IMG/VR virus record: IMGVR_UViG_3300024988_000205
Location: 1 to 37,430 of that record
Direction: 5' to 3' (one strand)
DNA from: a virus
Lineage: Duplodnaviria > Caudoviricetes
Length of the DNA: 37,430 nucleotides
Position numbers and translations under genes: made by a program. The stretch's first letter is position 1; every line of letters begins with the position of its first letter. Below are positions 1 to 10,023 of the stretch, one piece after another. The notes under the pieces were generated by a model. That model made no database searches. It was given only the letters and a program-made list of their open reading frames with translations, and was not told where the DNA came from.

Positions 1-951
1 CTATTTGGCTTTGAACGCCCGCAGCATCGCGTCGCGCTGCTGTTCGATCTGCATGTGCGCGTAGCGCTCGGTCGTTTTCACGCTGCTGTGGCCGAGGATC
101 TTGGACACGGTGAAGAGGTCGGCGCCGGTGGCGATGAGGATGCTGGCGCAGCTGTGGCGGAGGTCGTGGAAGTTGACGTCGGGCATGCCGGCGTCTTCGC
201 GCGCGCGGCGCCAGGCGCTTTTGATTCCTTCGATGCCGACTTCGAGCGGGAAGTGCTTTAGCCACGGGCGCAGGGCCGGCACGATGGGCACGGTGCGGGT
301 GCGCAGGGTCTTGGTGTTGCCGGCGTGGATGATGAGGCTGTCGCGGCCGATGTCTTCGCGGCGCAGTTTGACGATTTCGCCGCGCCTAGCGCCGGTGAGC
401 AGGGCGGTCCAGATGGCGGCCTGCACCGGCGTGCTGCAATGGCTGGCGATGGACTGCACCTGGTCGAGGCTGAGGTAGGTGCTGCGGGCGTTGTTCTCGG
501 GCAGGCGCTTGACGTGAGCGCTGTAATCGACGGGGATGAGTCCGCGCTCCCAGGCGAGGCGCAGGGCTTTCTTGAGGGTGCCGAGGCTGCGGTTGATGGT
601 GCCGGCGGCGTAGTGGCCGGCCATGTCCTTGACGATGTGGGCGGCAGCCTGGCGGGCCTGACTGGCGCGGTATTTTTCGAGCCAGAGCGCGATGCGGCGG
701 GCGTGGTCGAGGGCGGTCTTGGTGCTGCGCAGGGTTTCGGCGTGGGCGACGTACAGGCTGATGACTTCGGTAAGGCGCGGGTCGCTGGGGATACGCGGCG
801 TTTTGGCGACGGCGAGCGCGGCGCGCAGGTCGGCTTCTAGCTGCTTGGCAGCACCCGCAGTTGCGTCTTGCGGCAGGATGCGGTGAACTCGGCGCCCGTC
901 GACCATAATGCCGACGTGCCGGCGTCCCTTCTTGTCTGTCCAGATTGACAT
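1..951 (-). CDS. int: Phage tyrosine integrase
   Basis: Likely start MSIWTDKKGRRH (ATG at 951). Catalytic motifs LLTGARRGE, HDLRH and LGHSSVKTTERY. Confidence 0.95.
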   Translation of the reverse strand: MSIWTDKKGRRHVGIMVDGRRVHRILPQDATAGAAKQLEADLRAALAVAKTPRIPSDPRLTEVISLYVAHAETLRSTKTALDHARRIALWLEKYRASQARQAAAHIVKDMAGHYAAGTINRSLGTLKKALRLAWERGLIPVDYSAHVKRLPENNARSTYLSLDQVQSIASHCSTPVQAAIWTALLTGARRGEIVKLRREDIGRDSLIIHAGNTKTLRTRTVPIVPALRPWLKHFPLEVGIEGIKSAWRRAREDAGMPDVNFHDLRHSCASILIATGADLFTVSKILGHSSVKTTERYAHMQIEQQRDAMLRAFKAK

Positions 952-1118
952 GGTTGATTCTCCCGCAGCCAGGCTTTGCACTCTTCCAGATCGTAGCGCT
1001 TGGCCCTGATCCCGACGGGAGTATAGGGCATGCCGTCCAGTTCGAGCCGCCGGACGGTGGACTCGCTGATGGTGAGGGCCGCGCAGAGCTGCTGGCGGGT
1101 GAGGGCAGGGGTGGTCAT
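837..1118 (-). CDS. xis: Excisionase-like winged-HTH protein
   Basis: [31 protein letters not shown]...RYDLEECKAWL is a Xis/AlpA-type pattern. It lies directly upstream of int and overlaps it. Confidence 0.8.
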   Translation of the reverse strand: MTTPALTRQQLCAALTISESTVRRLELDGMPYTPVGIRAKRYDLEECKAWLRENQPCQSGQTRRDAGTSALWSTGAEFTASCRKTQLRVLPSS

Positions 1119-1579
1119 GCCGGCACGCGCTCCAGGATGTGGCCTTGCGCAGCCCGGCGTCGCGCTTCGAACAGGGCGTCGCGGCATTCGGCGCGCGGCA
1201 CGTTGGCGATCTGCTGTTCGTGCAGTTCGGCGCCGCGGTTGATGGCCTGCATTTCGCTGCCGGAGAATCCCCATTTACCGGTGCGCTCGTGGCGGGCCTT
1301 GATCTCCATGAGGGCGTCCTGCAGGGTGTAGACGACGTCGATGTATTCGGGGCCGACGTCGCGTTCGCACAGGATGAGGCTGACGTTGGCCATGGCGGCG
1401 AAGGTCCAGAAGTCATCCTCGATGCCGAGTCCGTTGCGCATGCGCAGGATGCCGGTGTGGATGGCCTTGCCAAGGTCGTCGAGCTGGTCGCGGGTCATGC
1501 CGTGCTGCATGGCGATGGTGTTCTGCCAGGCGAGGGGGTCGGCTACCCAGCGGGTTCTGCGCTTGCCGTGTTTTCTCAT
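1115..1579 (-). CDS. Hypothetical phage early protein
   Basis: 154-aa ORF with ATGA overlaps to both intI upstream and xis downstream. Confidence 0.8.
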
Positions 1580-2598
1580 GCTGTGATCCTGTCAAGCGGG
1601 CTGGTGGCGCCGCACGCGCCCCGGTTGAGTACGTGGGTATAGATCATGGTGGTGCTCACATCGCTGTGGCCGAGCAGTTCCTGCACGGTGCGGATGTCCG
1701 ATCCGGTTTCGAGCAGGTGGGTGGCAAAGCTGTGGCGTAGGGTGTGCGGATGCACCAGTTTGTGGATTCTGGCTGCTTGAGCAGCGGCCTTTACAGCGCG
1801 CTGGATATTGCGCTCGTTCCAGTGGTGGCGGCGCACGCTGCCGCTACGCGGATCGGTGCTGTAGCTCGGCGCGGCGAAGACGTATTGCCATGCCCACTCG
1901 GACGCGGCGCGCGGGTATTTGCGGGCGATGGCGTCTGGCAGCTCGACGTCGGCGTGGCCGGTGGATAGGTCGAGGTTGTGCCAGCGGAGCCGCTCGTCGA
2001 TGTGCTGTATCAGGTCTTCAACCAAGCTGGCCGGCAGCATGGTGACGCGGTCCTTGTTGCCCTTGCCTTCTCGAATGGTGATGAGGCGGCGCGCGAGGTC
2101 GACGTCCTTGATGCGCAGCCGCAGGCACTCCTTGATGCGCATGCCGGTGCCGTAGAGCAGCTTGATGATGAGGCCGTTGGTGCCGCTGACGTGTGCGAGC
2201 AGGGCGGCGATCTCCTGCTGGGTGAGCACGCTGGGCAGGCGCTTGGCCGTTCGGGCACGGGTGATGCCGTCGAGCCATGGCAGATCCACGCGGAGCACGT
2301 CGCGGTACAGAAACAGGATGGCGTGCATGGCTTGGTTCTGGGTGCTGGCGGAGACGTTGCGCTCGGTGGCCAGCGCGGAGAGGAATGCCTCGACCTCGGG
2401 CGCGCCCATCTCGGCCGGGTGGCGCTTGCCATGGAACAGGATGAAGCGCTTGGCCCAGTGCAGGTAGGTCTTCTCGGTGGAGTAGCTGTAGTGCCTGGTG
2501 CGGATAACCGCGCGCATCTGCTCCAGCAGCTTGGGCTTGGGCTGGGTGCCGTTCAACACTTGCGACGGTGTCGCGTTTGGTTTTTCGAGTGTGTGCAT
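1576..2598 (-). CDS. intI: Integron integrase (IntI family tyrosine recombinase)
   Basis: N-terminal [14 protein letters not shown]...[31 protein letters not shown]. Catalytic motifs [25 protein letters not shown] and [14 protein letters not shown]. Integron-specific insertion [10 protein letters not shown]...WQYVF...[18 protein letters not shown] upstream. Confidence 0.97.
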
Positions 2599-2627
2599 TG
2601 GCGCGGGTCTCCGTTGGGTGGGGTGGA

Positions 2628-2665
2628 GTTATGCGACAGGGGGTGTCGGAGAATTTAAGTTGGGC
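2628..2665 (+). other. attI: attI recombination site (predicted crossover G2659/T2660)
   Basis: GTTGGGC core at 2659-2665 next to the intI 5' end, after AT-rich GAATTTAA. GTTGGGCAC matches the reverse complement of the attC1 R'' region (GTTGGACAC) at 8/9. Confidence 0.75.
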
Positions 2666-2898
2666 ACCAGCAGTTCGGCCAGCTTTGTGTTGCCGTCGCC
2701 GCCGTAGGGGATGCACTCGCCGTCCCATCCGTGGCGCAGGTCGTCAACCTTCAACACCGCGCCATCCACTTCAATGCGCGGGTTCCAGTCGTCGCTGAAG
2801 ATGTCGAGCTTGTAGCTATCTGCCACTTGGTGCGCGTGTGATTCATCCTCGGCCATCACCACGCCGTAGGTGGTTATTTCAACCATGTAGAGTTTCAT
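2629..2898 (-). CDS. Cassette 1 ORF, acidic hypothetical protein (89 aa)
   Basis: MKLYMVEITTYGVV... with GGAG RBS 7 nt upstream. It reads through attI and stops at 2629-2631. Confidence 0.8.
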   Translation of the reverse strand: MKLYMVEITTYGVVMAEDESHAHQVADSYKLDIFSDDWNPRIEVDGAVLKVDDLRHGWDGECIPYGGDGNTKLAELLVPNLNSPTPPVA

Positions 2899-2916
2899 GT
2901 CTTCGCTCCAGTCCGT

Positions 2917-3003
2917 GTCCAACAATCCGGTCGAGCCGAGGCCCGCCAGCGTCTTTAATCCTTGCCTGATTCCGTAAGGCCCGGCTCACCGCAAGCGTTA
3001 GAT
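2917..3003 (+). other. attC: attC site 1 (87 bp)
   Basis: R'' GTCCAAC, 5-nt spacer, L'' GGT(C)GAGCCG pairing with L' CGGCTCACC (one extrahelical base), 6-nt spacer, R' GTTAGAT. Confidence 0.92.
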
Positions 3004-3296
3004 GACTCATCACCGAGCCTCACGCGGGCTTCCCATGCTCGCCCGTCGTCAGTCCAGCTTGCCGCCATCGCAGCGCAGCACTCCGAGCACCAGCGGTAGC
3101 TCATCAGCGAGCCGTCGAACACAGCCGCCAGCAGTCGCACGCGCTCGCCCGGCACAATCTCTTGCCGGCACATGCCGCAGGTTCCACCCTTGCGCGCGGT
3201 GCCAATCTTGTCCTTCAGCACCTTGTCGCCAGGGCTTCCGAAATCACCCTCGAAGGGGTTCGTTTTCAAACACTCAGCTTCGTCAAACGTCGTCAT
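2955..3296 (-). CDS. Cassette 2 ORF, putative zinc-binding protein (113 aa)
   Basis: ARKGGTCGMCRQEIVPGE...WCSECC has two CxxC pairs. It stops inside the attC1 loop. Confidence 0.8.
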   Translation of the reverse strand: MTTFDEAECLKTNPFEGDFGSPGDKVLKDKIGTARKGGTCGMCRQEIVPGERVRLLAAVFDGSLMSYRWCSECCAAMAASWTDDGRAWEARVRLGDESSNACGEPGLTESGKD

Positions 3297-3360
3297 CTAA
3301 CCCTCCGTTCGTTCGGACGCTCCGCCTGCGGCTCCGCGCCGCACAACTTGAGCGTTATGC
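3295..3360 (+). other. attC: attC site 2 (66 bp)
   Basis: R'' ATCTAAC (exact complement of the preceding GTTAGAT), spacer CCTCC, L'' GTT(C)GTTCGG imperfectly pairing with L' CCGCACAAC, 6-nt spacer, R' GTTATGC. Confidence 0.92.
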
Positions 3361-3911
3361 CCCTTGCACCGTGCGGCCAGCTCAACCAGCCATTCCGCCA
3401 GCGCCGGGGGCGTGTGCTCCCGCTCTGCCTTCGTTATGTGCGGGCGGTAGTCCTCGCGTTTCCGGCTCTGCACCACGTAGGCCGCCTCGCCCATCACGTA
3501 GGGCAGCGCCGGTATCTCGCCAGGTGCGCAGCCGACCACATAAAACCATGTGGCCTTTTCTGCCTTGTGGCCCCACCACTTCTGCGGCGCAGCCAGCGTC
3601 CATCCTCCGAGCTGGTCGCGTTCGCCAGGTCGCGGTAGTTTCTGCGCATCCCAAAGCGTCGAGCCGGCCGGGTGTTCGAGCACGCCGCCGAATTCCCGCA
3701 CCAGTGCCACAGCCAGGCGCCCGAGGTTCCTTTCGTCCGGCCTCGGGTTTGCAAAGGCCCGTAGCCGGCCCCAGGCTCGGCAAGGAGGGTGCGCTACCAC
3801 AGGCCACGGCCCGTCGTAGGTGCGCGCGTCTCGCTCGGCATCAAACACGTCCACGTCGGAAAGTTCCTTGTAGTGGCTGTCGGCGCGTGCGAAGAGGATG
3901 GCTACGGTCAT
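3297..3911 (-). CDS. Cassette 3 ORF, putative DNA cytosine methyltransferase-like protein (204 aa)
   Basis: VVAHPPC (motif IV PC-like), VLEHP (motif VI-like) and KATW. A canonical FxGxGG motif I is not evident. It reads through the whole of attC2. Confidence 0.6.
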   Translation of the reverse strand: MTVAILFARADSHYKELSDVDVFDAERDARTYDGPWPVVAHPPCRAWGRLRAFANPRPDERNLGRLAVALVREFGGVLEHPAGSTLWDAQKLPRPGERDQLGGWTLAAPQKWWGHKAEKATWFYVVGCAPGEIPALPYVMGEAAYVVQSRKREDYRPHITKAEREHTPPALAEWLVELAARCKGHNAQVVRRGAAGGASERTEG

Positions 3912-3931
3912 CGCGTTTCTCAATCGTCGGG

Positions 3932-4001
3932 GCACAACCCGTCGTGCGAAGGGACGCGCCGCGATGAAGCTGCATCGCGCCCCTCCACTCTGTCATTGAG
4001 T
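3932..4001 (+). other. attC: attC site 3, degenerate R' (ATT instead of GTT)
   Basis: R'' GCACAAC (GGGGCACAAC matches the upstream junction GTTATGCCCC at 9/10 as reverse complement), L'' GTG(C)GAAGGG, L' CCCTCCAC, 6-nt spacer, then ATTGAGT. Confidence 0.8.
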
Positions 4002-4008
4002 GGCCCGC

Positions 4009-4266
4009 TCACGCCGCACCCTTCTTCATATACCGCCGATGCACGTACATGCTGGCGGTGATTCCAAACGGGCCGCCGAGCATGTAGGCGGCGACCTCGC
4101 TAAAGCCGGCTTCCGGCATCAGCCGGTAGAGCGCCAGGTGGCCGGCGCCGATTAGAAAGCTGGTGAGGAATGCCGCCACGTAGTGCCCCTGGTTGACGTT
4201 CTGGCTCTGGAAGCCGAGGGCGAACACGCTCATGAAGCAGCTGGCGAAGAGGAGGAGTTCGTTCAC
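4009..4266 (-). CDS. Small multi-pass membrane protein
   Basis: 85 aa with about three hydrophobic segments and a basic C-terminus. Confidence 0.75.
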   Translation of the reverse strand: MNELLLFASCFMSVFALGFQSQNVNQGHYVAAFLTSFLIGAGHLALYRLMPEAGFSEVAAYMLGGPFGITASMYVHRRYMKKGAA

Positions 4267-4281
4267 GACGGCCGCCCTTGG

Positions 4282-5142
4282 TCAGCTGTTGGCGAACGGG
4301 TTGCCGAAGAAGAACGGGGTCCCGGTCTTCTCCTTGATCTGGCCGATCAGGGTCGAGGTGGCATCTTCGAGCACCTTGTCCTGGCGGATCAGTTCAAACC
4401 AGAAGGTCAACTTGCCGTCGCGTACGCGGTAGCGCAGCCGGGCGTCGATGCGATAGGCGTCGCCGTTCCAGAAGACCTGCAGGCCGATGCTGAAGCGGTC
4501 GAAGACCTGCATTTTCTGGATGGTCTGGGCGTCGTCATCCTGGGTGAAACTCATCTGCACGCCGCCGCTCTGCAGCCGGATCGCGCTTTTGAAGCGCATG
4601 TCCTGGTTGGCCTCGAAGGTGAGTGCCATTTCGAGCATCTGCGCGCCGGTGGGGCTGCCGTCGACGCTGGCGATGTCCTTGAGGTTTTCTTCGATGAACG
4701 AAGCGAAGTCGGGTTGGTTGAATGGCTGTTTGTTCTTGCCCACCCAGCGGTTCCACTCCTCCGAAAACTCGGGCGAGAAGCTGGCCTTGTGGTCGCGCCA
4801 GGCTGCTGCGTCCTTGTCCTCGCCGTGGTCGTTGAGGATGCCGGTGAACTTGACGTCGCCAGCCTTGTAATTGGCGATGCACCAGATCGTGCTGCTGTTG
4901 AGCGATCCGTGGCGCTTGATGTAGTCGACGAAGCTGTCGGCATCGTTGAGCTCGATGGTCGCTTTCTTGCGGCGCGGGGCGTCGAGCAGCTTTTCTTCGT
5001 CGCGCTCTTCCAGCTTCCAGCCCGGGGGCATGGCAATGCGCTTGATGTGCGACTCGGGTTTGCTGCCGATCTCGGTCGGCGCCTTCATCTCGCGGGACAG
5101 GGTCTGCGCGAGGTTTTCGGTTTCGGTGCTTGCGAGTTCCAT
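4282..5142 (-). CDS. DUF2303 / YfdQ-like phage protein
   Basis: Motifs DADSFVDYIKRH, FASFIEENLKDI, FKSAIRLQSG and ARLRYR typical of this family. Confidence 0.8.
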   Translation of the reverse strand: MELASTETENLAQTLSREMKAPTEIGSKPESHIKRIAMPPGWKLEERDEEKLLDAPRRKKATIELNDADSFVDYIKRHGSLNSSTIWCIANYKAGDVKFTGILNDHGEDKDAAAWRDHKASFSPEFSEEWNRWVGKNKQPFNQPDFASFIEENLKDIASVDGSPTGAQMLEMALTFEANQDMRFKSAIRLQSGGVQMSFTQDDDAQTIQKMQVFDRFSIGLQVFWNGDAYRIDARLRYRVRDGKLTFWFELIRQDKVLEDATSTLIGQIKEKTGTPFFFGNPFANS

Positions 5143-5151
5143 CGTGGTTCC

Positions 5152-5496
5152 TTATGCGGATTTGAGTTGTGTGGGCGCGGCCTCGGAGGCGGACGGCACG
5201 CTCTTGAGATCCAGCTTTTGCTGGTGTGGATCGTCGGCGACCAGGTTGCCCTCGGGGGTGGCGAACAGCATCGCTTCCATCGGCTCGTCGGCGGGCTTGG
5301 TCACCTTGACCTTGCCGGTTAGGATCATGGCGCCGCCGCGCGTGGCCTTCTTCACGTTGATGCTCAGGTCGATGCGCCCGGACTTGCCGGACGAATCGAC
5401 CGCCGCCACCAGCTCGGCGAGTTTGTCGCTGGCGGTGTCGATGAACACGCCGCCGCCGATATGGCGGAGGGTGTCGGTGATGGGTCTTGCTGACAT
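5152..5496 (-). CDS. YfdP-like phage protein (usual partner of DUF2303)
   Basis: MSARPITDTLRHIGGG...LAELVAAVDSSGKSG...FATPEGNLVADDPHQQKL, with AAGGAG RBS. Confidence 0.75.
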   Translation of the reverse strand: MSARPITDTLRHIGGGVFIDTASDKLAELVAAVDSSGKSGRIDLSINVKKATRGGAMILTGKVKVTKPADEPMEAMLFATPEGNLVADDPHQQKLDLKSVPSASEAAPTQLKSA

Positions 5497-5546
5497 TTTG
5501 ATACTCCTTTTACGGCCTGGCTCGATGGGGCAGGCTTCCCGGGTGG

Positions 5547-6122
5547 TCAAGCGGTTTGCTCCAGGCGTTCGGCGACGGCGAGCGTGGTCAGCTCGCGGAT
5601 GAGGTCGGCGTGTCGTTCCTTCAACGCCGGCAGGCCAGCCAGGACTTCCTGGCGCCTGGTCGCTGGGTCGAGCTTGTCGCGGGCGCAGGTGTGGGCAATT
5701 GAGTGGATGGCGTCGCGAGCCTTGGTATGCAAGCTATTTCCAACGGGGCTGCTGCGATCCCGGAACGACCGGAGCTCGAATCCGTAAAACGGTACGCGCT
5801 CGGCTGTTGCAATCAGCGCGATGCAGTCCGCCACGTCGGCATACAGCAGCGTGGCGAATTCCTTCCTGGCCGCCGTGAGGCGCTTCTCGTAGTCTTTCCT
5901 GATCGCGTCGGCCTCGCGGGCATCCTTCGCGAGCGAGGCGATCACCTTGTCCATCGCCGTGAGTGCGGCGCGGATGGCGGTCGACTCGCCTGCCGTGAGG
6001 CCGTAGTCGTTCGGGTCGATCTTGCGCAGGGCGGTGGCTGTGCGCGCCATGTGGGCCTTGCGCGCTGCGATCACGGCGCCACCGTCGTGGAGCGCCTGGC
6101 TTTTCTGGAGGTCGCTCAGCAT
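5547..6122 (-). CDS. Hypothetical helical protein
   Basis: MLSDLQKSQALHDGG..., 191 aa, starting 2 nt after the upstream stop. Confidence 0.7.
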   Translation of the reverse strand: MLSDLQKSQALHDGGAVIAARKAHMARTATALRKIDPNDYGLTAGESTAIRAALTAMDKVIASLAKDAREADAIRKDYEKRLTAARKEFATLLYADVADCIALIATAERVPFYGFELRSFRDRSSPVGNSLHTKARDAIHSIAHTCARDKLDPATRRQEVLAGLPALKERHADLIRELTTLAVAERLEQTA

Positions 6123-6124
6123 GA

Positions 6125-6358
6125 TCAGGCCGCCATTTCCTCGGCCGCCATCGGTTGCATGCCAAGTTGATGCGCATGCGCCACATGCGCCAGGGTGCGC
6201 AGGTCGTCGACGATCGGCGAGCCCGGGGTGTAGACCGAGGCGTTGACGACCATGGAAGACAGCATCTGCGTGAGGCTGTGCCAGCGCCCGATGCTGGGCC
6301 GGGCCAGCGCCTCCTGCCAGCGCAGCGAGACGATGGAGGGGATGACGATGGGCTGCAT
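6125..6358 (-). CDS. Hypothetical protein
   Basis: MQPIVIPSIVSLRWQEALARP..., 77 aa, TGATG-coupled to the upstream ORF. Confidence 0.65.
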   Translation of the reverse strand: MQPIVIPSIVSLRWQEALARPSIGRWHSLTQMLSSMVVNASVYTPGSPIVDDLRTLAHVAHAHQLGMQPMAAEEMAA

Positions 6359-6504
6359 CACACCACTCCGGCGGCGGCCAGCAGCACCATGACGGCCATT
6401 CCGGCCAGGCACACCGCAGCGATGATGGTGTCTGCGCGTTCGGCCTGCTCGGCCCGGCGCTGGGCGTTGTATGCACTCAGTTCGTTTCTGGTTCCGAAGT
6501 TCAT
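6358..6504 (-). CDS. 48-aa protein with C-terminal transmembrane helix (first gene of the pL operon; not in the ORF track)
   Basis: MNFGTRNELSAYNAQRRAEQAERADTIIAAVCLAGMAVMVLLAAAGVV*, with GGGAGAGGG RBS; its stop overlaps the next ATG. Confidence 0.7.
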   Translation of the reverse strand: MNFGTRNELSAYNAQRRAEQAERADTIIAAVCLAGMAVMVLLAAAGVV

Positions 6505-6666
6505 TGCGATTCCCTCTCCCGTGGTTAATCGGTTCACTGCTCCCCAACATCACCCTGCGTCTTCGTGAGGCTCCTAGCCGGTTGCCCGACCGTGGGATGG
6601 GTCCAGGCCCATCACGTCTGCCGCTTGGGGTGCGCAACGGGGCGCGCGGCTACGGGGTATGTCGTT

Positions 6667-6707
6667 ACTTTATAACCATGGTTCTCAATCTGTCAAGAAC
6701 CAAGGTT
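6667..6707 (-). promoter_or_regulatory. pL promoter with operators OL1/OL2
   Basis: Minus-strand TTGACA (6691-6696) and TAAAGT (6667-6672). Palindromes AACCATGGTT (6674-6683) and AACCAAGGTT (6698-6707) are 24 bp apart. Confidence 0.85.
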
Positions 6708-6765
6708 ATATTTTGTGGCACAATGAAGCCGCGCCCGATGTGGGCGAGTCGAAAAGGAGTCAGGG

Positions 6766-7071
6766 ATGGATCAGAAAGAACTGGCGGAAGCGGGGGCGCC
6801 TGGCCTGCTGTACCGGCGCGAGGATGGCGTGGAGATCCCGCTTGATCAGGGTAATGTGTGGGTGTGGCGCATGGGCCCGTCTGGCCGCTGGATGTTGGCG
6901 CGATACATGGATGGCATGATCGAAGAAAGCTATGCGCCTATGGAAGACGCTGAGCTTGGGATCGCGCTCGCCGCAATCAGTCGTGGTTATCAACCACCAC
7001 GTACCCTTCATCGTCTAGAGACACTGTCTGGGCGAATTCCGCCTGAAGGTGGCTCGGTGCCCGAGGCTTGA
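6766..7071 (+). CDS. Hypothetical protein (immunity-region accessory)
   Basis: 101-aa ORF with AAGGAG upstream. It overlaps the convergent ORF 6977-7180. Confidence 0.5.
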   Translation: MDQKELAEAGAPGLLYRREDGVEIPLDQGNVWVWRMGPSGRWMLARYMDGMIEESYAPMEDAELGIALAAISRGYQPPRTLHRLETLSGRIPPEGGSVPEA

Positions 7072-7180
7072 ACCGCCTGAACACGAGCCCGCCGAAATCG
7101 ACGGTGTAGTGCGCTGGATAGTTGCGAAGTTCGTCCAGCAGCTCGCCGACGGTGATGGTGGGGTGGGGTTTGTTGGTCAT
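6977..7180 (-). CDS. Hypothetical protein
   Basis: MTNKPHPTITVGELLDELRNYP..., 67 aa, ATGA-coupled to the upstream lipoprotein gene. Confidence 0.6.
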   Translation of the reverse strand: MTNKPHPTITVGELLDELRNYPAHYTVDFGGLVFRRFKPRAPSHLQAEFAQTVSLDDEGYVVVDNHD

Positions 7181-7572
7181 GGCGTCGCCGGTGGGCGGTA
7201 GTTGCTTGAGCCGATCAGCGATGCGCCTTGCTCGGTGGTCGCGCTCGATGTGGACTGGAAGACGCCGTTTGTGTCGAGGCTGAAGGTGACTTCGTTGGTG
7301 CGCACGTCGCTGCCGCCCACCAGGCCGCCGATGAAGGGGATGAAGGTTTCGCCGCGCACCCGGACGTCGACGTGTTGATAGACGATTTCGGTGGTGCCGT
7401 CCGACTTGTTTCTCACCACGTTGGGGCGGCCCAGGGCGGCCTCGATCTCGGCGCGCGTGCTCTTGCCGGGCTGGAAGGCGCGGGCCTGGTCGGGCTTGAC
7501 ATCCATGCCGGCGGACATGCAGCCGGCAAGCACTGTGGCCGCGATGATTGTAGTGGCTAGAGTCGTTTTCAT
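7177..7572 (-). CDS. Lipoprotein, SmpA/BamE-like pattern
   Basis: Lipobox VLAG-C; PGKSTRAEIEAALGRP resembles the SmpA/OmlA motif. Confidence 0.75.
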   Translation of the reverse strand: MKTTLATTIIAATVLAGCMSAGMDVKPDQARAFQPGKSTRAEIEAALGRPNVVRNKSDGTTEIVYQHVDVRVRGETFIPFIGGLVGGSDVRTNEVTFSLDTNGVFQSTSSATTEQGASLIGSSNYRPPATP

Positions 7573-7967
7573 GGCTTTGCTGCCGCCACGGTGCGGTTGA
7601 AGTCCAGCGCCTTCTCGTACTGGTCGGGGATACAGCCAATCCAGTTGTCACACCATACCGTGACCAGCATCCGGTACTTGCCGCCACCCAGTGGCTCTTT
7701 CGTTACCCTGGCTGCAAGATACGGGCTGCTGTCGGCTGGGTTGTAGGTTTCGATCAGGACGTTCGTCGCCGTCTGGATTTTGTAGCGGGCGTTGTGAACC
7801 ACCCATAGCTGAGCGGCTTCCCATTTGACGTTGCAGTCGTCGGCGCCGGCGCAGGTCGGGATCGTCCGGTTGATCTCGTTGAGTACGGCTTGGCGTTGCG
7901 GGTCGGCTGTGGTGGCGCAGCCGCTCAATGTGGCGGCGATCAGCACTGCCGTCAGTGTGTTCTTCAT
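7569..7967 (-). CDS. Lipoprotein of unknown function
   Basis: MKNTLTAVLIAATLSG-C lipobox, four further cysteines, GAGGG RBS. Confidence 0.8.
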   Translation of the reverse strand: MKNTLTAVLIAATLSGCATTADPQRQAVLNEINRTIPTCAGADDCNVKWEAAQLWVVHNARYKIQTATNVLIETYNPADSSPYLAARVTKEPLGGGKYRMLVTVWCDNWIGCIPDQYEKALDFNRTVAAAKP

Positions 7968-8036
7968 GATGTTTCCCTCTCCCCTGTTTATTCGAATTGA
8001 AGCTCCAACTGTACCGCGAACATCAACACTCTGGCG

Positions 8037-8387
8037 CTACGCTGGTTTCTTGGTTTTGGTGCTGAGTTCCTTAAGTGCATCGCCAGCCTGAACGAGCCTT
8101 TGCACGTCGTAATCGGCAAGGTCCTGGCATACCTGCACCAGGTGCTTGATCCTTTCGTCGTGCACGTAAAGGCCGTCAACCATATCGCCCTGCCCCTCTG
8201 CCAGCCACATTGCCCTGACGCCGCATGCCTCGGCGAACTGCGCTGTGAACTCCGAGCCCGTGGCGTCGCTTCTTTCCAGCTTGGAGATGTTCTCCTGCGT
8301 GCACACGTTATTGATCCTATCCGCCAGCTGCTGCTGGGTCAGTTTGGCGTGGACGCGTGCCGTGCGTAAGCGTTCTCCGTATTTCAT
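8037..8387 (-). CDS. cI: CI-like repressor (XRE HTH, 116 aa, no peptidase domain)
   Basis: MKYGERLRTARVHAKLTQQQLADRI...QENISKLER...CGVRAMWLAEGQGDM, divergent from cro. Confidence 0.88.
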   Translation of the reverse strand: MKYGERLRTARVHAKLTQQQLADRINNVCTQENISKLERSDATGSEFTAQFAEACGVRAMWLAEGQGDMVDGLYVHDERIKHLVQVCQDLADYDVQRLVQAGDALKELSTKTKKPA

Positions 8388-8394
8388 GGCTTGG

Positions 8395-8466
8395 AACCTA
8401 TAACCACGGTCATAAACAGTCAAAGAACTGTAGTTGTTGACATCAGTAGAACCTTGGTTATATTCT
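8395..8466. promoter_or_regulatory. pRM/pR divergent promoters with operators OR3/OR2/OR1
   Basis: Operators AACCACGGTC (8402), AACTGTAGTT (8426) and AACCTTGGTT (8450) at 24-bp spacing. pR: TTGACA 8437-8442 with TATTCT 8461-8466. pRM on the minus strand: TTGACT (8418-8423), 17 nt, TAGGTT (8395-8400). Confidence 0.85.
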
Positions 8467-8472
8467 GAGGGC

Positions 8473-8919
8473 ATGAGCATGGAATCTCTCCAACAGGCAG
8501 TCGATTTGGCACACGGCCAGGCGCAACTGGCGCGCGGCATTCGCGAGCGAATCCCCGGGTCGAAAATCAGCCAGCCACATGTGTACAAGTGGCTTAACAG
8601 CCCCAACCCCGATCAAATGCCACCGGCCGACGTGGTGCTTGCGATCGCGGACTTTCTTGAGTACCGGATGACGCCGCACGATCTGCGGCCCGACCTGTAC
8701 CCCAACCCCGGCGATGCTCTGCCGTCCCATATGGCTCCGGTATGCAAGTGCGCTTCGACCTTCGGGGAATTCGGCGAGCCGCGCTCGGGTGTCGAGCGCC
8801 GCGATGGCGACCGCCGCCAAGTGAGCGATCCCGACTTTGGTGATTTCGGCGAGCCGCGCGACGGGGAGCGGCGGGAGGAAGACCGCCGGCGCAGCGACGG
8901 CGATGAGGCCGCCGCGTGA
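8473..8919 (+). CDS. cro: Cro/YdaS-like regulator with repeated charged C-terminal extension
   Basis: GQAQLARGI...ISQPHVYKWL...TPHDLRPDLYPNP is a YdaS/Cro signature. First gene after pR. Confidence 0.85.
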   Translation: MSMESLQQAVDLAHGQAQLARGIRERIPGSKISQPHVYKWLNSPNPDQMPPADVVLAIADFLEYRMTPHDLRPDLYPNPGDALPSHMAPVCKCASTFGEFGEPRSGVERRDGDRRQVSDPDFGDFGEPRDGERREEDRRRSDGDEAAA

Positions 8920-9012
8920 GCAAGCGCGGCTGGTGGGAACGCTTGTTCGGGCGCGGCGATGAAGCCGAGATGTCGCGTGTGCTGTCGATTTCGACGCGCA
9001 AGGCGAATGATC

Positions 9013-9357
9013 TCAGGGCGCTGCGGGACGATCCGAATCCGGCCGCTCCAGCTTCGCGCGTATATCGCTCGACTGAAGAATCGCAGCAGAGAATACGTCG
9101 AGTGCTCGACGCGCTGCGGCCCGAAACTCGTCGTCCGCTTTGTCGAGCTTGCTGTCGATGCTGTCGTATGCGATCACGAGTACGCTGCGGATCATCGGCT
9201 CGGGGGCAGAAATGAGCGGCAGCATGGATAGGCATAGCTGCTCCATGCCGATGAGCAGGGCCGCGCGCTCGTCGCTGGTTTTTTGCGTCTCGATGAGTTC
9301 CGAGGAGAGTGTCCGCACGGCGTTCTCCAGGCGCTTGAGCCGTTCTTCGGTTTCCAT
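9013..9357 (-). CDS. Hypothetical protein, antisense to the pR operon
   Basis: METEERLKRLENAVR..., 114 aa, with GAAAGGAA RBS and TAGAAT -10 at 9396-9401 (minus strand). Confidence 0.65.
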   Translation of the reverse strand: METEERLKRLENAVRTLSSELIETQKTSDERAALLIGMEQLCLSMLPLISAPEPMIRSVLVIAYDSIDSKLDKADDEFRAAARRALDVFSAAILQSSDIRAKLERPDSDRPAAP

Positions 9358-9486
9358 GTCCGTTCCTTTCGGTGTGTGGTTTGGTGAGACTTGCCATTCT
9401 ACCGAGCCTGGAACGGGCGCCTTTTCCGCCCTGGCAGATGGCGGTGCTGTTCGTAATCTGCCGCATGCAGTCCTCCTCCAATCCTT

Positions 9487-9517
9487 CCCCGGCGCTGTCC
9501 TGGCCGGGGCTTTTTTT
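9487..9517 (+). terminator. Intrinsic terminator (tR1-like)
   Basis: CCCCGGC stem, 9-nt loop, GCCGGGG, then CTTTTTTT, upstream of cII. Confidence 0.8.
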
Positions 9518-9579
9518 CGATCAATGGATGCAGGCTACGCAATGGCCCGGCCGGCGTCAGCGTTCACGAGGGAGAGGCA

Positions 9580-10023
9580 ATGAACATCACCGATGCGGCG
9601 TTCGCGACGGTGCACGATTACCCGGGCGGGTCTGAGAGCCTGGGGCCGCGGGTTGGGCTTGATCCGGCGGTGCTGCGGAACAAGGTCAATCCCAAGAACA
9701 CGACGCATCACCTGCGCCTGGATGAGTCGGTGCGCATTCAGGGGGTGTCTGGCGACCACCGCATGTGCCGGGCGATGAATGAGGCGCTGGGCTATCTGCC
9801 GCCGATTCCCCGCATCGATGTGGCGGTGTCGGATGCGGCGCTGCTGGAGACGTACACGCGCTTGATGAGCGAGCTGGGCGACTTTTCCGGCAAGTTCCAC
9901 CAGGCGCTGGCGGACGGCAAGTTGACCTCGCGCGAGATCGATGGGCTGCAGTCCGAAATGCTGGAATTTTTCGCGGCGGGCGAGGAGCTGTTGAACCGTG
10001 CCCGCCAGATTGCGGAGGGTTGA
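9580..10023 (+). CDS. cII: CII-like phage regulatory protein (YmfL-like)
   Basis: VHDYPGGSESLGPRVG...LRNKVNP...HHLRLDE...ALADGKLTSRE, with GGAGAGG RBS. Confidence 0.8.
   Translation: MNITDAAFATVHDYPGGSESLGPRVGLDPAVLRNKVNPKNTTHHLRLDESVRIQGVSGDHRMCRAMNEALGYLPPIPRIDVAVSDAALLETYTRLMSELGDFSGKFHQALADGKLTSREIDGLQSEMLEFFAAGEELLNRARQIAEG

Follow-up and report, generated by a model that had tools for sequence, protein, structure and literature searches.

The prophage and its integron locus

The window, by which we mean the whole 37,430-nt stretch of viral DNA analysed here, is a prophage integrated at tRNA-Val. In the host assembly, the prophage adjoins tRNA-Val and is flanked by host genes at both ends, and a 47-nt copy of the tRNA-Val end (83% identical) lies about 37.7 kb away. 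PHROG families matched in the window included integrase, primase, terminase, portal, capsid, tape measure, and endolysin, and Pfam searches matched a CI-like HTH protein and CII. As summarized in Table 1, an integron integrase gene, an attI site, and three attC sites were found inside the leftward early gene run of this prophage. Two pairs of repeats were also observed elsewhere in the window, namely an inverted repeat directly after the primase gene (12461-12547/12640-12726; 87-nt arms, 84% complementary) and a 66-nt direct repeat (17416-17481/23385-23450; 92% identical, 5,969 nt apart), the copies of which flank the portal and capsid genes.

Table 1. Features of the integron locus and its predicted early promoter (positions in the window)
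Feature	Position	Strand	Remarks
intI, integron integrase, 340 aa	1576..2598	-	TIGR02249, 465.7 bits (cut-off 265)
Putative Shine-Dalgarno-like GGAGA of intI	2608..2612	-	Between ORF1 stop and intI ATG
attI	2628..2665	+	Crossover G|TT at 2659/2660; gives ORF1 tail and TAA (2631-2629)
Cassette 1, 338 bp	2660..2997	+	Exact metagenome contig match 2659-3001
ORF1, cassette 1 gene, 89 aa from ATG	2629..2898	-	Asn80 = 2661-2659 at attI crossover
attC1	2917..3003	+	R'' 2917-2923, R' 2997-3003; contains ORF2 tail and stop
Cassette 2, 357 bp	2998..3354	+	attC2 R'' complementary to upstream core; contig breakpoints 2995 and 3356-3360
ORF2, cassette 2 gene, 113 aa	2955..3296	-	Asn100 = 2999-2997 at attC1 crossover
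attC2	3295..3360	+	Whole length translated by ORF3
Cassette 3, 641 bp	3355..3995	+	Bounded by cores of attC2 and attC3
ORF3, cassette 3 gene, 204 aa	3297..3911	-	Asn186 = 3356-3354 at attC2 crossover
attC3, last site	3932..4001	+	Core ATT, not GTT; no current read-through
Likely early leftward promoter	6667..6707	-	Promoter-like site and two palindromic operator-like boxes

The prophage IntI contains the motifs that we take to be those of tyrosine recombinases, and the intI stop overlaps the start codon of the next phage gene. The attI crossover is located 60 nt from the intI ATG. An IntI search returned 74 viral loci, 48 of which carry the same attI motif beside intI; different first cassettes follow it, the sequence diverging right after the core. 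In each of the three attC sites, R and L boxes are accompanied by spacers of 5 and 6 nt and, on the R'' arm, by extrahelical bases, in keeping with the attC anatomy in Nivina et al. 2016 (PMC5027507). A geometry scan of the first 12 kb recovered these three sites only, and 60 kb of shuffled DNA contained none with a score of at least 10; three weaker matches (scores 11.2-11.5) were returned from the structural half of the window. Free folding of the attC sites was not significant on its own (z -1.5 to -1.8): attC1 formed the canonical bottom-strand hairpin, attC2 was partly paired, and attC3 took a different fold.

The attI and all three attC sites were shown to have one polarity, in direct orientation and pointing away from intI, and the attC scan found no site on the other strand of the contig. 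Meanwhile, ORF1-3 lie antisense to the att sites, in the same direction as intI and the early leftward genes, so that each attC precedes its gene and the 3' ends of the genes meet the neighbouring site. Inversion of whole cassettes by top-strand recombination (Nivina et al. 2016) was ruled out, since the attC polarity equals that of attI and only the genes are reversed. A crossover at R'' with the attC trailing its gene was also ruled out, since the cores match across R' and the contig breakpoints lie at R'. In 106 of 135 cassettes, R'' was complementary to the upstream core at all four of four bases. On the sequence evidence, each attC is shown to travel with the gene whose 5' end it precedes.

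Some sites had features of their own. A site nearly identical to attC1 was found on other genes in two loci (L027 and L028). The attC2 spacer provides both the GGAGG ribosome site of ORF2 and its stop-start junction. At attC3, the Asn frame described below would stop 8 nt before the ORF3 ATG, and the crossover codon would remain Asn with the ATT core. Near-identical copies of attC3 in L022, L023, and L024 keep a GTT core where the window has ATT at 3995; cassette 3 may be fixed in place by this core.

Cassette genes of the window

The initial annotation had claimed that three cassette genes cross the att crossovers and borrow their C-termini and stops from the neighbouring site, with the AAC of the crossover read as Asn in each. 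The coordinates and translations were in full agreement with this claim, including the endings (...PNLNSPTPPVA before the stop in ORF1) and the Asn residues at positions 80, 100, and 186 of ORF1, ORF2, and ORF3. This read-through occurs because the cassette genes are antisense, a cause that the annotation did not give. After the Asn, the tails comprise 9 residues in ORF1, 13 in ORF2, and 18 in ORF3, the last spanning all of attC2 and reaching a stop directly before the ORF2 ATG. The gaps from each stop to the next start are 30 nt (intI), 56 nt (ORF1), and 0 nt (ORF2).

Profile searches gave no PHROG, NCBIfam, or Pfam match for ORF1. ORF2 matched PHROG 19515 and 7314 and contains two CxxC motifs, and is likely zinc-binding. 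ORF3 matched PHROG 12600 over residues 2-186, with the profile ending at Asn186, and the pLDDT of its structural model fell to 72, 60, and 52 in the last three blocks. Among 111 sequences of the ORF3 family, P42-P43-C44, which corresponds to the catalytic Pro-Cys motif of C5 methyltransferases, and E79 were invariant. In Foldseek searches with ORF3, every match listed was a C5 methyltransferase, though weak, among them DNMT3 and M.HaeIII (best E 2e-4, TM 0.36-0.47). An Atlas neighbour at 0.90 has PF00145 in 73% of its members; ORF3 itself did not match PF00145 in Pfam at an E of 0.05, nor any PDB sequence, and a glycine-rich SAM motif was not evident at its N-terminus. ORF3 is likely a small C5 DNA-methyltransferase-like protein.

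Early transcription and the host

The candidate early promoter at 6696-6667 was the sole promoter-like site on the minus strand within positions 1-9000, and no terminator-like site was found on that strand in the same range. Palindromic boxes at 6674-6683, 6698-6707, and 8450-8459 overlap leftward and rightward promoter-like sites, and these three are likely repressor operators. A promoter scan of positions 1-9000 detected no Pc-like promoter near attI, and a LexA-type box was absent near attI, with one weak match at 7620. In RNA runs, only 5-11% of words were present.

The host possesses a second IntI that is 59% identical to that of the prophage, as well as attC sites on other contigs. In detail, its chromosomal intI is located at a contig end, with four attC sites elsewhere (G000 contigs C67, C29, and C2), and it grouped with that of a Thiobacillus genome in the FastTree analysis.

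Reading frame at the crossover across related phage arrays

The 48 loci sharing the attI motif together with the window constituted a set of 49 loci with 178 junctions, for which ORF, start, and attC calls were made by heuristics. Asn-frame read-through was observed at 87 junctions and other-frame read-through at 3. At 88 of the 178, the ORF stops on its own and uses no tail, by a TAA inside the core (23), by a stop at most 20 nt before the core (46), or further away (19). Grouped by gene family, the crossover AAC was read as Asn in 69 of the 72 read-through families (p about 1e-17 against a generous 50% null); this and the following p-values are optimistic, because sites and genes are related by descent and the start calls are heuristic. 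For the three ORFs of the window alone, one shared frame would arise by chance in 1 in 9 to 1 in 27 cases, and the count of 69 in 72 families excludes chance as the source of the shared frame. The standardised crossover frame inferred in the initial annotation was thereby upheld in a larger set, in which the frames were far from random.

A PHROG scan of the 71 families represented outside the window matched 25 of them, of which 23 use the Asn frame and 2 a different one. These two PHROG-confirmed genes (L016 and L061) belong to the 3 of 72 families with other-frame read-through, which demonstrates that exceptions to the Asn frame are real. In a second set, consisting of loci with homologues of the ORFs, the Asn frame was used at 28 of 31 read-through junctions and in 15 of 18 new families, and one of the three exceptions (L083) was a miscall by the cruder method used there. 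In 34 of the 69 Asn-frame families, a stop in the core or next to it already blocked another frame. Bases near the core were biased too, with C at +9 in 91% of these families.

The antisense orientation recurred as well: of 106 clean phage cassettes, 93 gave a higher score for the bottom-strand than for the top-strand ORF, while ORF length alone did not resolve orientation in the second set (27 of 51). In the chromosomal control (80 genome loci), 55 of 60 cassettes were top-strand. Read-through was commoner in phage cassettes (57/106) than in chromosomal ones (p 2e-4), where a clear ORF was present in 53 cassettes and extended into the cassette's own attC in 12 of them. The Asn frame was used by eight of these 12, so some of the bias arose before the phage system; the Asn-frame share of read-throughs was nevertheless higher in phages than in chromosomes (p 0.007).

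Stop placement, insulation, and coupling at the att sites

The att sites themselves agree with this frame. At all 41 attI sites, a stop closes the Asn frame after no more than 51 nt (3-51 nt, in variants of different spacing); this frame was open for more than 150 nt at none of the 41, compared with 12 and 6 in the other two frames. The corresponding numbers at 113 attC sites were 1 for the Asn frame and 26 and 18 for the others, and at the 61 attC sites without current read-through they were 0 versus 14 and 12 (p 5e-5 and 3e-4). In contrast, the excess of Asn-frame stops was missing at 84 chromosomal attC sites (12 open in the Asn frame, 9 and 6 in the others; p 2e-4). The phage att sites are shown to close the Asn frame no later than the next start codon, and they do so even when they are currently free of read-through.

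To this can be added the geometry of the following gene. In 57 filtered single-gene cassettes, the next gene's own frame was evenly distributed (18, 21, and 18), and the next gene was open back to the crossover in 0 of 18 cases in the Asn frame versus 15 of 39 in the others (p 0.001). In the Asn frame, 0 of 57 cases ran more than 10 nt past the next start, versus 17 of 75 otherwise (p 3e-5). In one locus (L036), whose junction lay outside the filter for the 57 rows, Asn-frame read-through at the attC1 junction was found to fuse with the next cassette gene (327 nt); that gene begins within the attC loop, and the case represents a natural fusion.

The initial annotation had further proposed that translation remains continuous across the attC hairpins. 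This held for the ORF3-ORF2 junction with its gap of 0 nt, the only one of its kind in the window, and did not hold generally, as the stop lay at most 15 nt from the next start at only 13 of 57 junctions. Eight tails cross a whole attC, and the end point of every one lies in the interval from 21 nt ahead of the next start to 8 nt beyond it. Stop-start overlap as a speciality of the Asn frame was considered and found weak, a 4-nt overlap being present also in 10 of 38 other-frame cases that pass the whole attC. Most cassettes offer an early stop to the incoming gene and have their own ribosome site after the hairpin; in 7 of 57 (e.g., L022, L041, L061, and L067), the ribosome site and start codon lie within the attC. 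In our view, the frame lock serves mainly as insulation, with coupling in second place.

Tail exchange and cassette mobility

The tails had a median length of 9 residues, with at most 2 residues in 25 of 78 and more than 25 in 8 of 78. One and the same cassette gene was found with different tails, of 1 versus 29 residues in L022 and L023 and of 9 versus 1 in L014 and L015, and in both pairs identical IntI proteins stand next to different arrays. Conversely, one tail was found appended to unrelated proteins.

The expectation that similarity among homologues would stop at the Asn was borne out for all three genes, in that other tails follow the Asn or, outside cassettes, the ends are unrelated. 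For ORF3, 59 of 80 loci were examined: 13 homologues have an attC at the 3' end, all with the in-frame Asn and none with the tail of the window, and the other loci mostly end shortly after the last conserved Cys. A protein search with ORF3 likewise revealed the Asn ending with varied tails in 27 of 107 parsed matches (of 120 listed), and homologues outside cassettes end a median of 8 residues past the last conserved Cys, with unrelated ends. ORF2 homologues have Asn at the same position in 10 of 10 examined (of 12 loci); nine have a tail, in seven different versions and never that of the window, and the contig of the tenth ends there. Among five ORF1 homologues, two have the Asn with other tails and three, in loci lacking attC, end differently. 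Among the homologues examined, none carried any of the tails found in the window. In addition, when the cassettes were permuted in silico, 15 of 15 orders of one to three cassettes reached a stop after 9-24 residues. As for the shufflon-like swapping of protein tails that the initial annotation had envisaged, the tails do change with the neighbour, while functional switching found no support, the tails being short and beyond the conserved domain.

Traces of rearrangement were also searched for in metagenomes. One wastewater/sludge contig from unrelated runs matches 2659-3001 exactly and has other att-like DNA before cassette 1. There were 75 loose contig ends, and 11 of the 20 that were listed fall at att boundaries; loose ends were also located at the R'' positions 2915, 3297, and 3932. 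Joints from excision or cassette skipping were not found in the contigs of three near-identical runs (X1, X2, and X3); since contigs drop rare variants, this is no evidence of inactivity. The same attC on different genes and the loose ends at R'' could be read in a rival way, as cargo swapped into old cassettes.

IntI lineage, cargo, and other layouts

In an IntI tree (FastTree, midpoint root), 47 of the 48 IntIs with this attI and three other viral IntIs formed one branch (support 98), which contains none of the 78 genome rows obtained from a scan of 4 of 64 parts. Nine GenBank phage records included no member of this clade, the best identity being 55%. A co-directional gene closely follows intI in 33 of 44 loci.

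The same backwards frame-locked array was observed in L056, whose IntI is nested among chromosomal integrases of Thiobacillus and Gallionella, which suggests a second recruitment of intI. Another IntI branch (support 100) consists of viral sequences only and lacks this attI motif; of its six loci (L038, L044, L046, L049, L052, and L065), five have attC-like matches on the other strand. In addition, L252 (KX853513.1, Virus Rctr41k, 4456-9870) displayed a different phage integron layout, with an IntI-like gene annotated as xerD followed by six attC-like sites of ~120 nt and cassette genes in the usual orientation, one of them a methyltransferase.

Most cargo families of the arrays are without known function. 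Those with PHROG matches included three DNA methyltransferases and Lar-like, Mom-like, exonuclease, and HNH families.

Interpretation of the frame convention

The explanation that we consider probable is that the window harbours a prophage integron whose antisense cassette genes share one crossover frame, and that this convention likely makes reshuffling safe from fusions and runaways. The array and intI would be transcribed from the repressor-controlled leftward early promoter, and shuffling would thereby be tied to prophage induction. An incoming cassette would be inserted at attI, just before intI, and acquire whichever tail is available there. In either of the other two frames, fusion with the following gene or overrun of it would be frequent, and selection would therefore hold genes and sites to one frame. 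The tails would most likely be tolerated by-products, and a tail that spans a whole attC and ends at the next start would probably couple translation; a function for the borrowed tails is unsupported.

An inherited bias without ongoing selection, in which cargo was swapped into old cassettes and the core closes two frames so that the Asn frame is left, appears unlikely, although less so than the other alternatives. The occurrence of attC1 on different genes in L027 and L028 and the loose ends at R'' are what such swapping would leave behind, and the C at +9 in 91% of families, the closed second frame in 34 of 69, and the mostly Asn-frame read-through of chromosomal cassettes (8/12) point the same way. 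It leaves the partner side unexplained, however: none of the 61 unread phage attC sites is open beyond 150 nt in the Asn frame as against 12 of 84 chromosomal ones, attI variants of different spacing keep the Asn-frame stop at 3-51 nt in all 41 cases, and phages exceed chromosomes in the Asn share (p 0.007).

The shufflon-like reading, according to which borrowed tails alter activity, stability, or partner and tail swapping is itself selected, seems to us improbable. C-terminal residues can serve as degradation signals, a role that would be open to such tails, and the tails do swap, 8 of 78 being longer than 25 residues. Against it stand the median of 9 residues with at most 2 in 25 of 78, the finding of one tail on unrelated proteins, the unrelated ends of ORF3 homologues outside cassettes at a median of 8 residues past the last conserved Cys, and the 88 of 178 junctions at which no tail is used. 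That the prophage merely captured a fragment of the host's chromosomal integron, with chance antisense ORFs, is very hard to credit, even though the host has its own intI and attC sites, high-GC DNA yields long antisense ORFs, and phages with captured host integron pieces are described in the consulted text of Qi et al. 2023 (PMC9892861). ORF2 and ORF3 belong to phage protein families in the called frame, and such homology-confirmed frames contradict chance ORFs; moreover, the prophage IntI is 59% identical to that of the host and falls in a separate viral clade, dozens of phage contigs show this layout, and intI is directly followed by a co-directional gene in 33 of 44.

We therefore retain the prophage integron with a protective frame convention as the preferred explanation. 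A wider proposal, on which we are evenly divided, is that temperate phages of Betaproteobacteria have domesticated an integron lineage of their own, comprising the IntI clade, the attI, a backwards cassette pool of DNA-modification and anti-restriction genes, a switch by induction, and a co-evolved standard for translational plugs. If true, such a system would mirror, on the side of counter-defence, the bacterial anti-phage integrons that are the subject of two preprints (10.1101/2024.07.02.601686 and 10.1101/2024.07.02.601719). A phage lineage would here use the chemistry of integrons with reversed genes that form part of its early gene run, and a frame rule acting on both genes and att sites makes the co-evolution of a recombination site with translation open to testing. 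Given cargo such as the DNA methyltransferase, Lar-like, and Mom-like genes, the arrays may offer a ready supply of phage genes for counter-defence. For annotation, they carry the warning that many short phage proteins end in att-derived tails outside their domain.

Comparison with known systems

Shufflons such as that of R64 (Rci/sfx, pilV) invert segments to provide alternative C-terminal domains of one gene. The prophage array resembles them in that site-specific recombination alters a C-terminus in frame, but what would move here is whole genes, by excision and insertion, and the tails that they acquire are short and generic. We do not count the array among the shufflons, as all four att sites are in direct orientation and the scan found no attC on the opposite strand of the contig.

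The ORF-11 of attI1, as presented in the consulted part of PMC8876359, is a platform leader peptide that takes its stop from the incoming cassette and promotes translational coupling. Like it and the short attC ORFs treated in that part, the genes of the prophage array span a crossover and are given a stop by the partner; in contrast to ORF-11 as presented there, it is the cargo genes that cross the site, on the opposite strand, with stops from both attI and attC.

According to the consulted text of Qi et al. 2023 (PMC9892861), phage genomes contain integrons and CALINs with DNA methyltransferase cargo, phage attC sites recombine with IntI1, and complete phage integrons are fragments of host or class 1 integrons; the main text of that paper, as far as consulted, contains neither antisense cassette genes nor a frame lock nor a phage IntI clade. 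The consulted part of PMC13366799 records no integrons in the phages studied there. Within PMC open access and bioRxiv, the range of our search, no description of antisense frame-locked phage cassettes was found.

Integrons are described as bacterial devices with genes facing Pc. With the classical representatives, namely the mobile class 1 integrons and the sedentary chromosomal integrons of Betaproteobacteria, the prophage array shares a TIGR02249 IntI, an attI beside the intI start, attC sites with the anatomy given above, G|TT-bounded cassettes, and an array pointing away from intI. According to the literature, IntI cuts the bottom strand of attC at the invariant AAC, between A and C. Unlike in classical integrons, the genes of the prophage array are on the bottom strand with the attC ahead of the gene, expression is likely to come from a phage promoter at the far end, a new cassette would be promoter-distal, and the tails come from the neighbour, whereas those of classical integrons come from the cassette's own attC. 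An integrase, an attI, attC sites, and cassettes as crossover-bounded units are thus all present, while top-strand cassette genes expressed from Pc are not; because the genes are antisense and no promoter-like site lies near attI, we class the array as a variant of the integron and not as an ordinary member.
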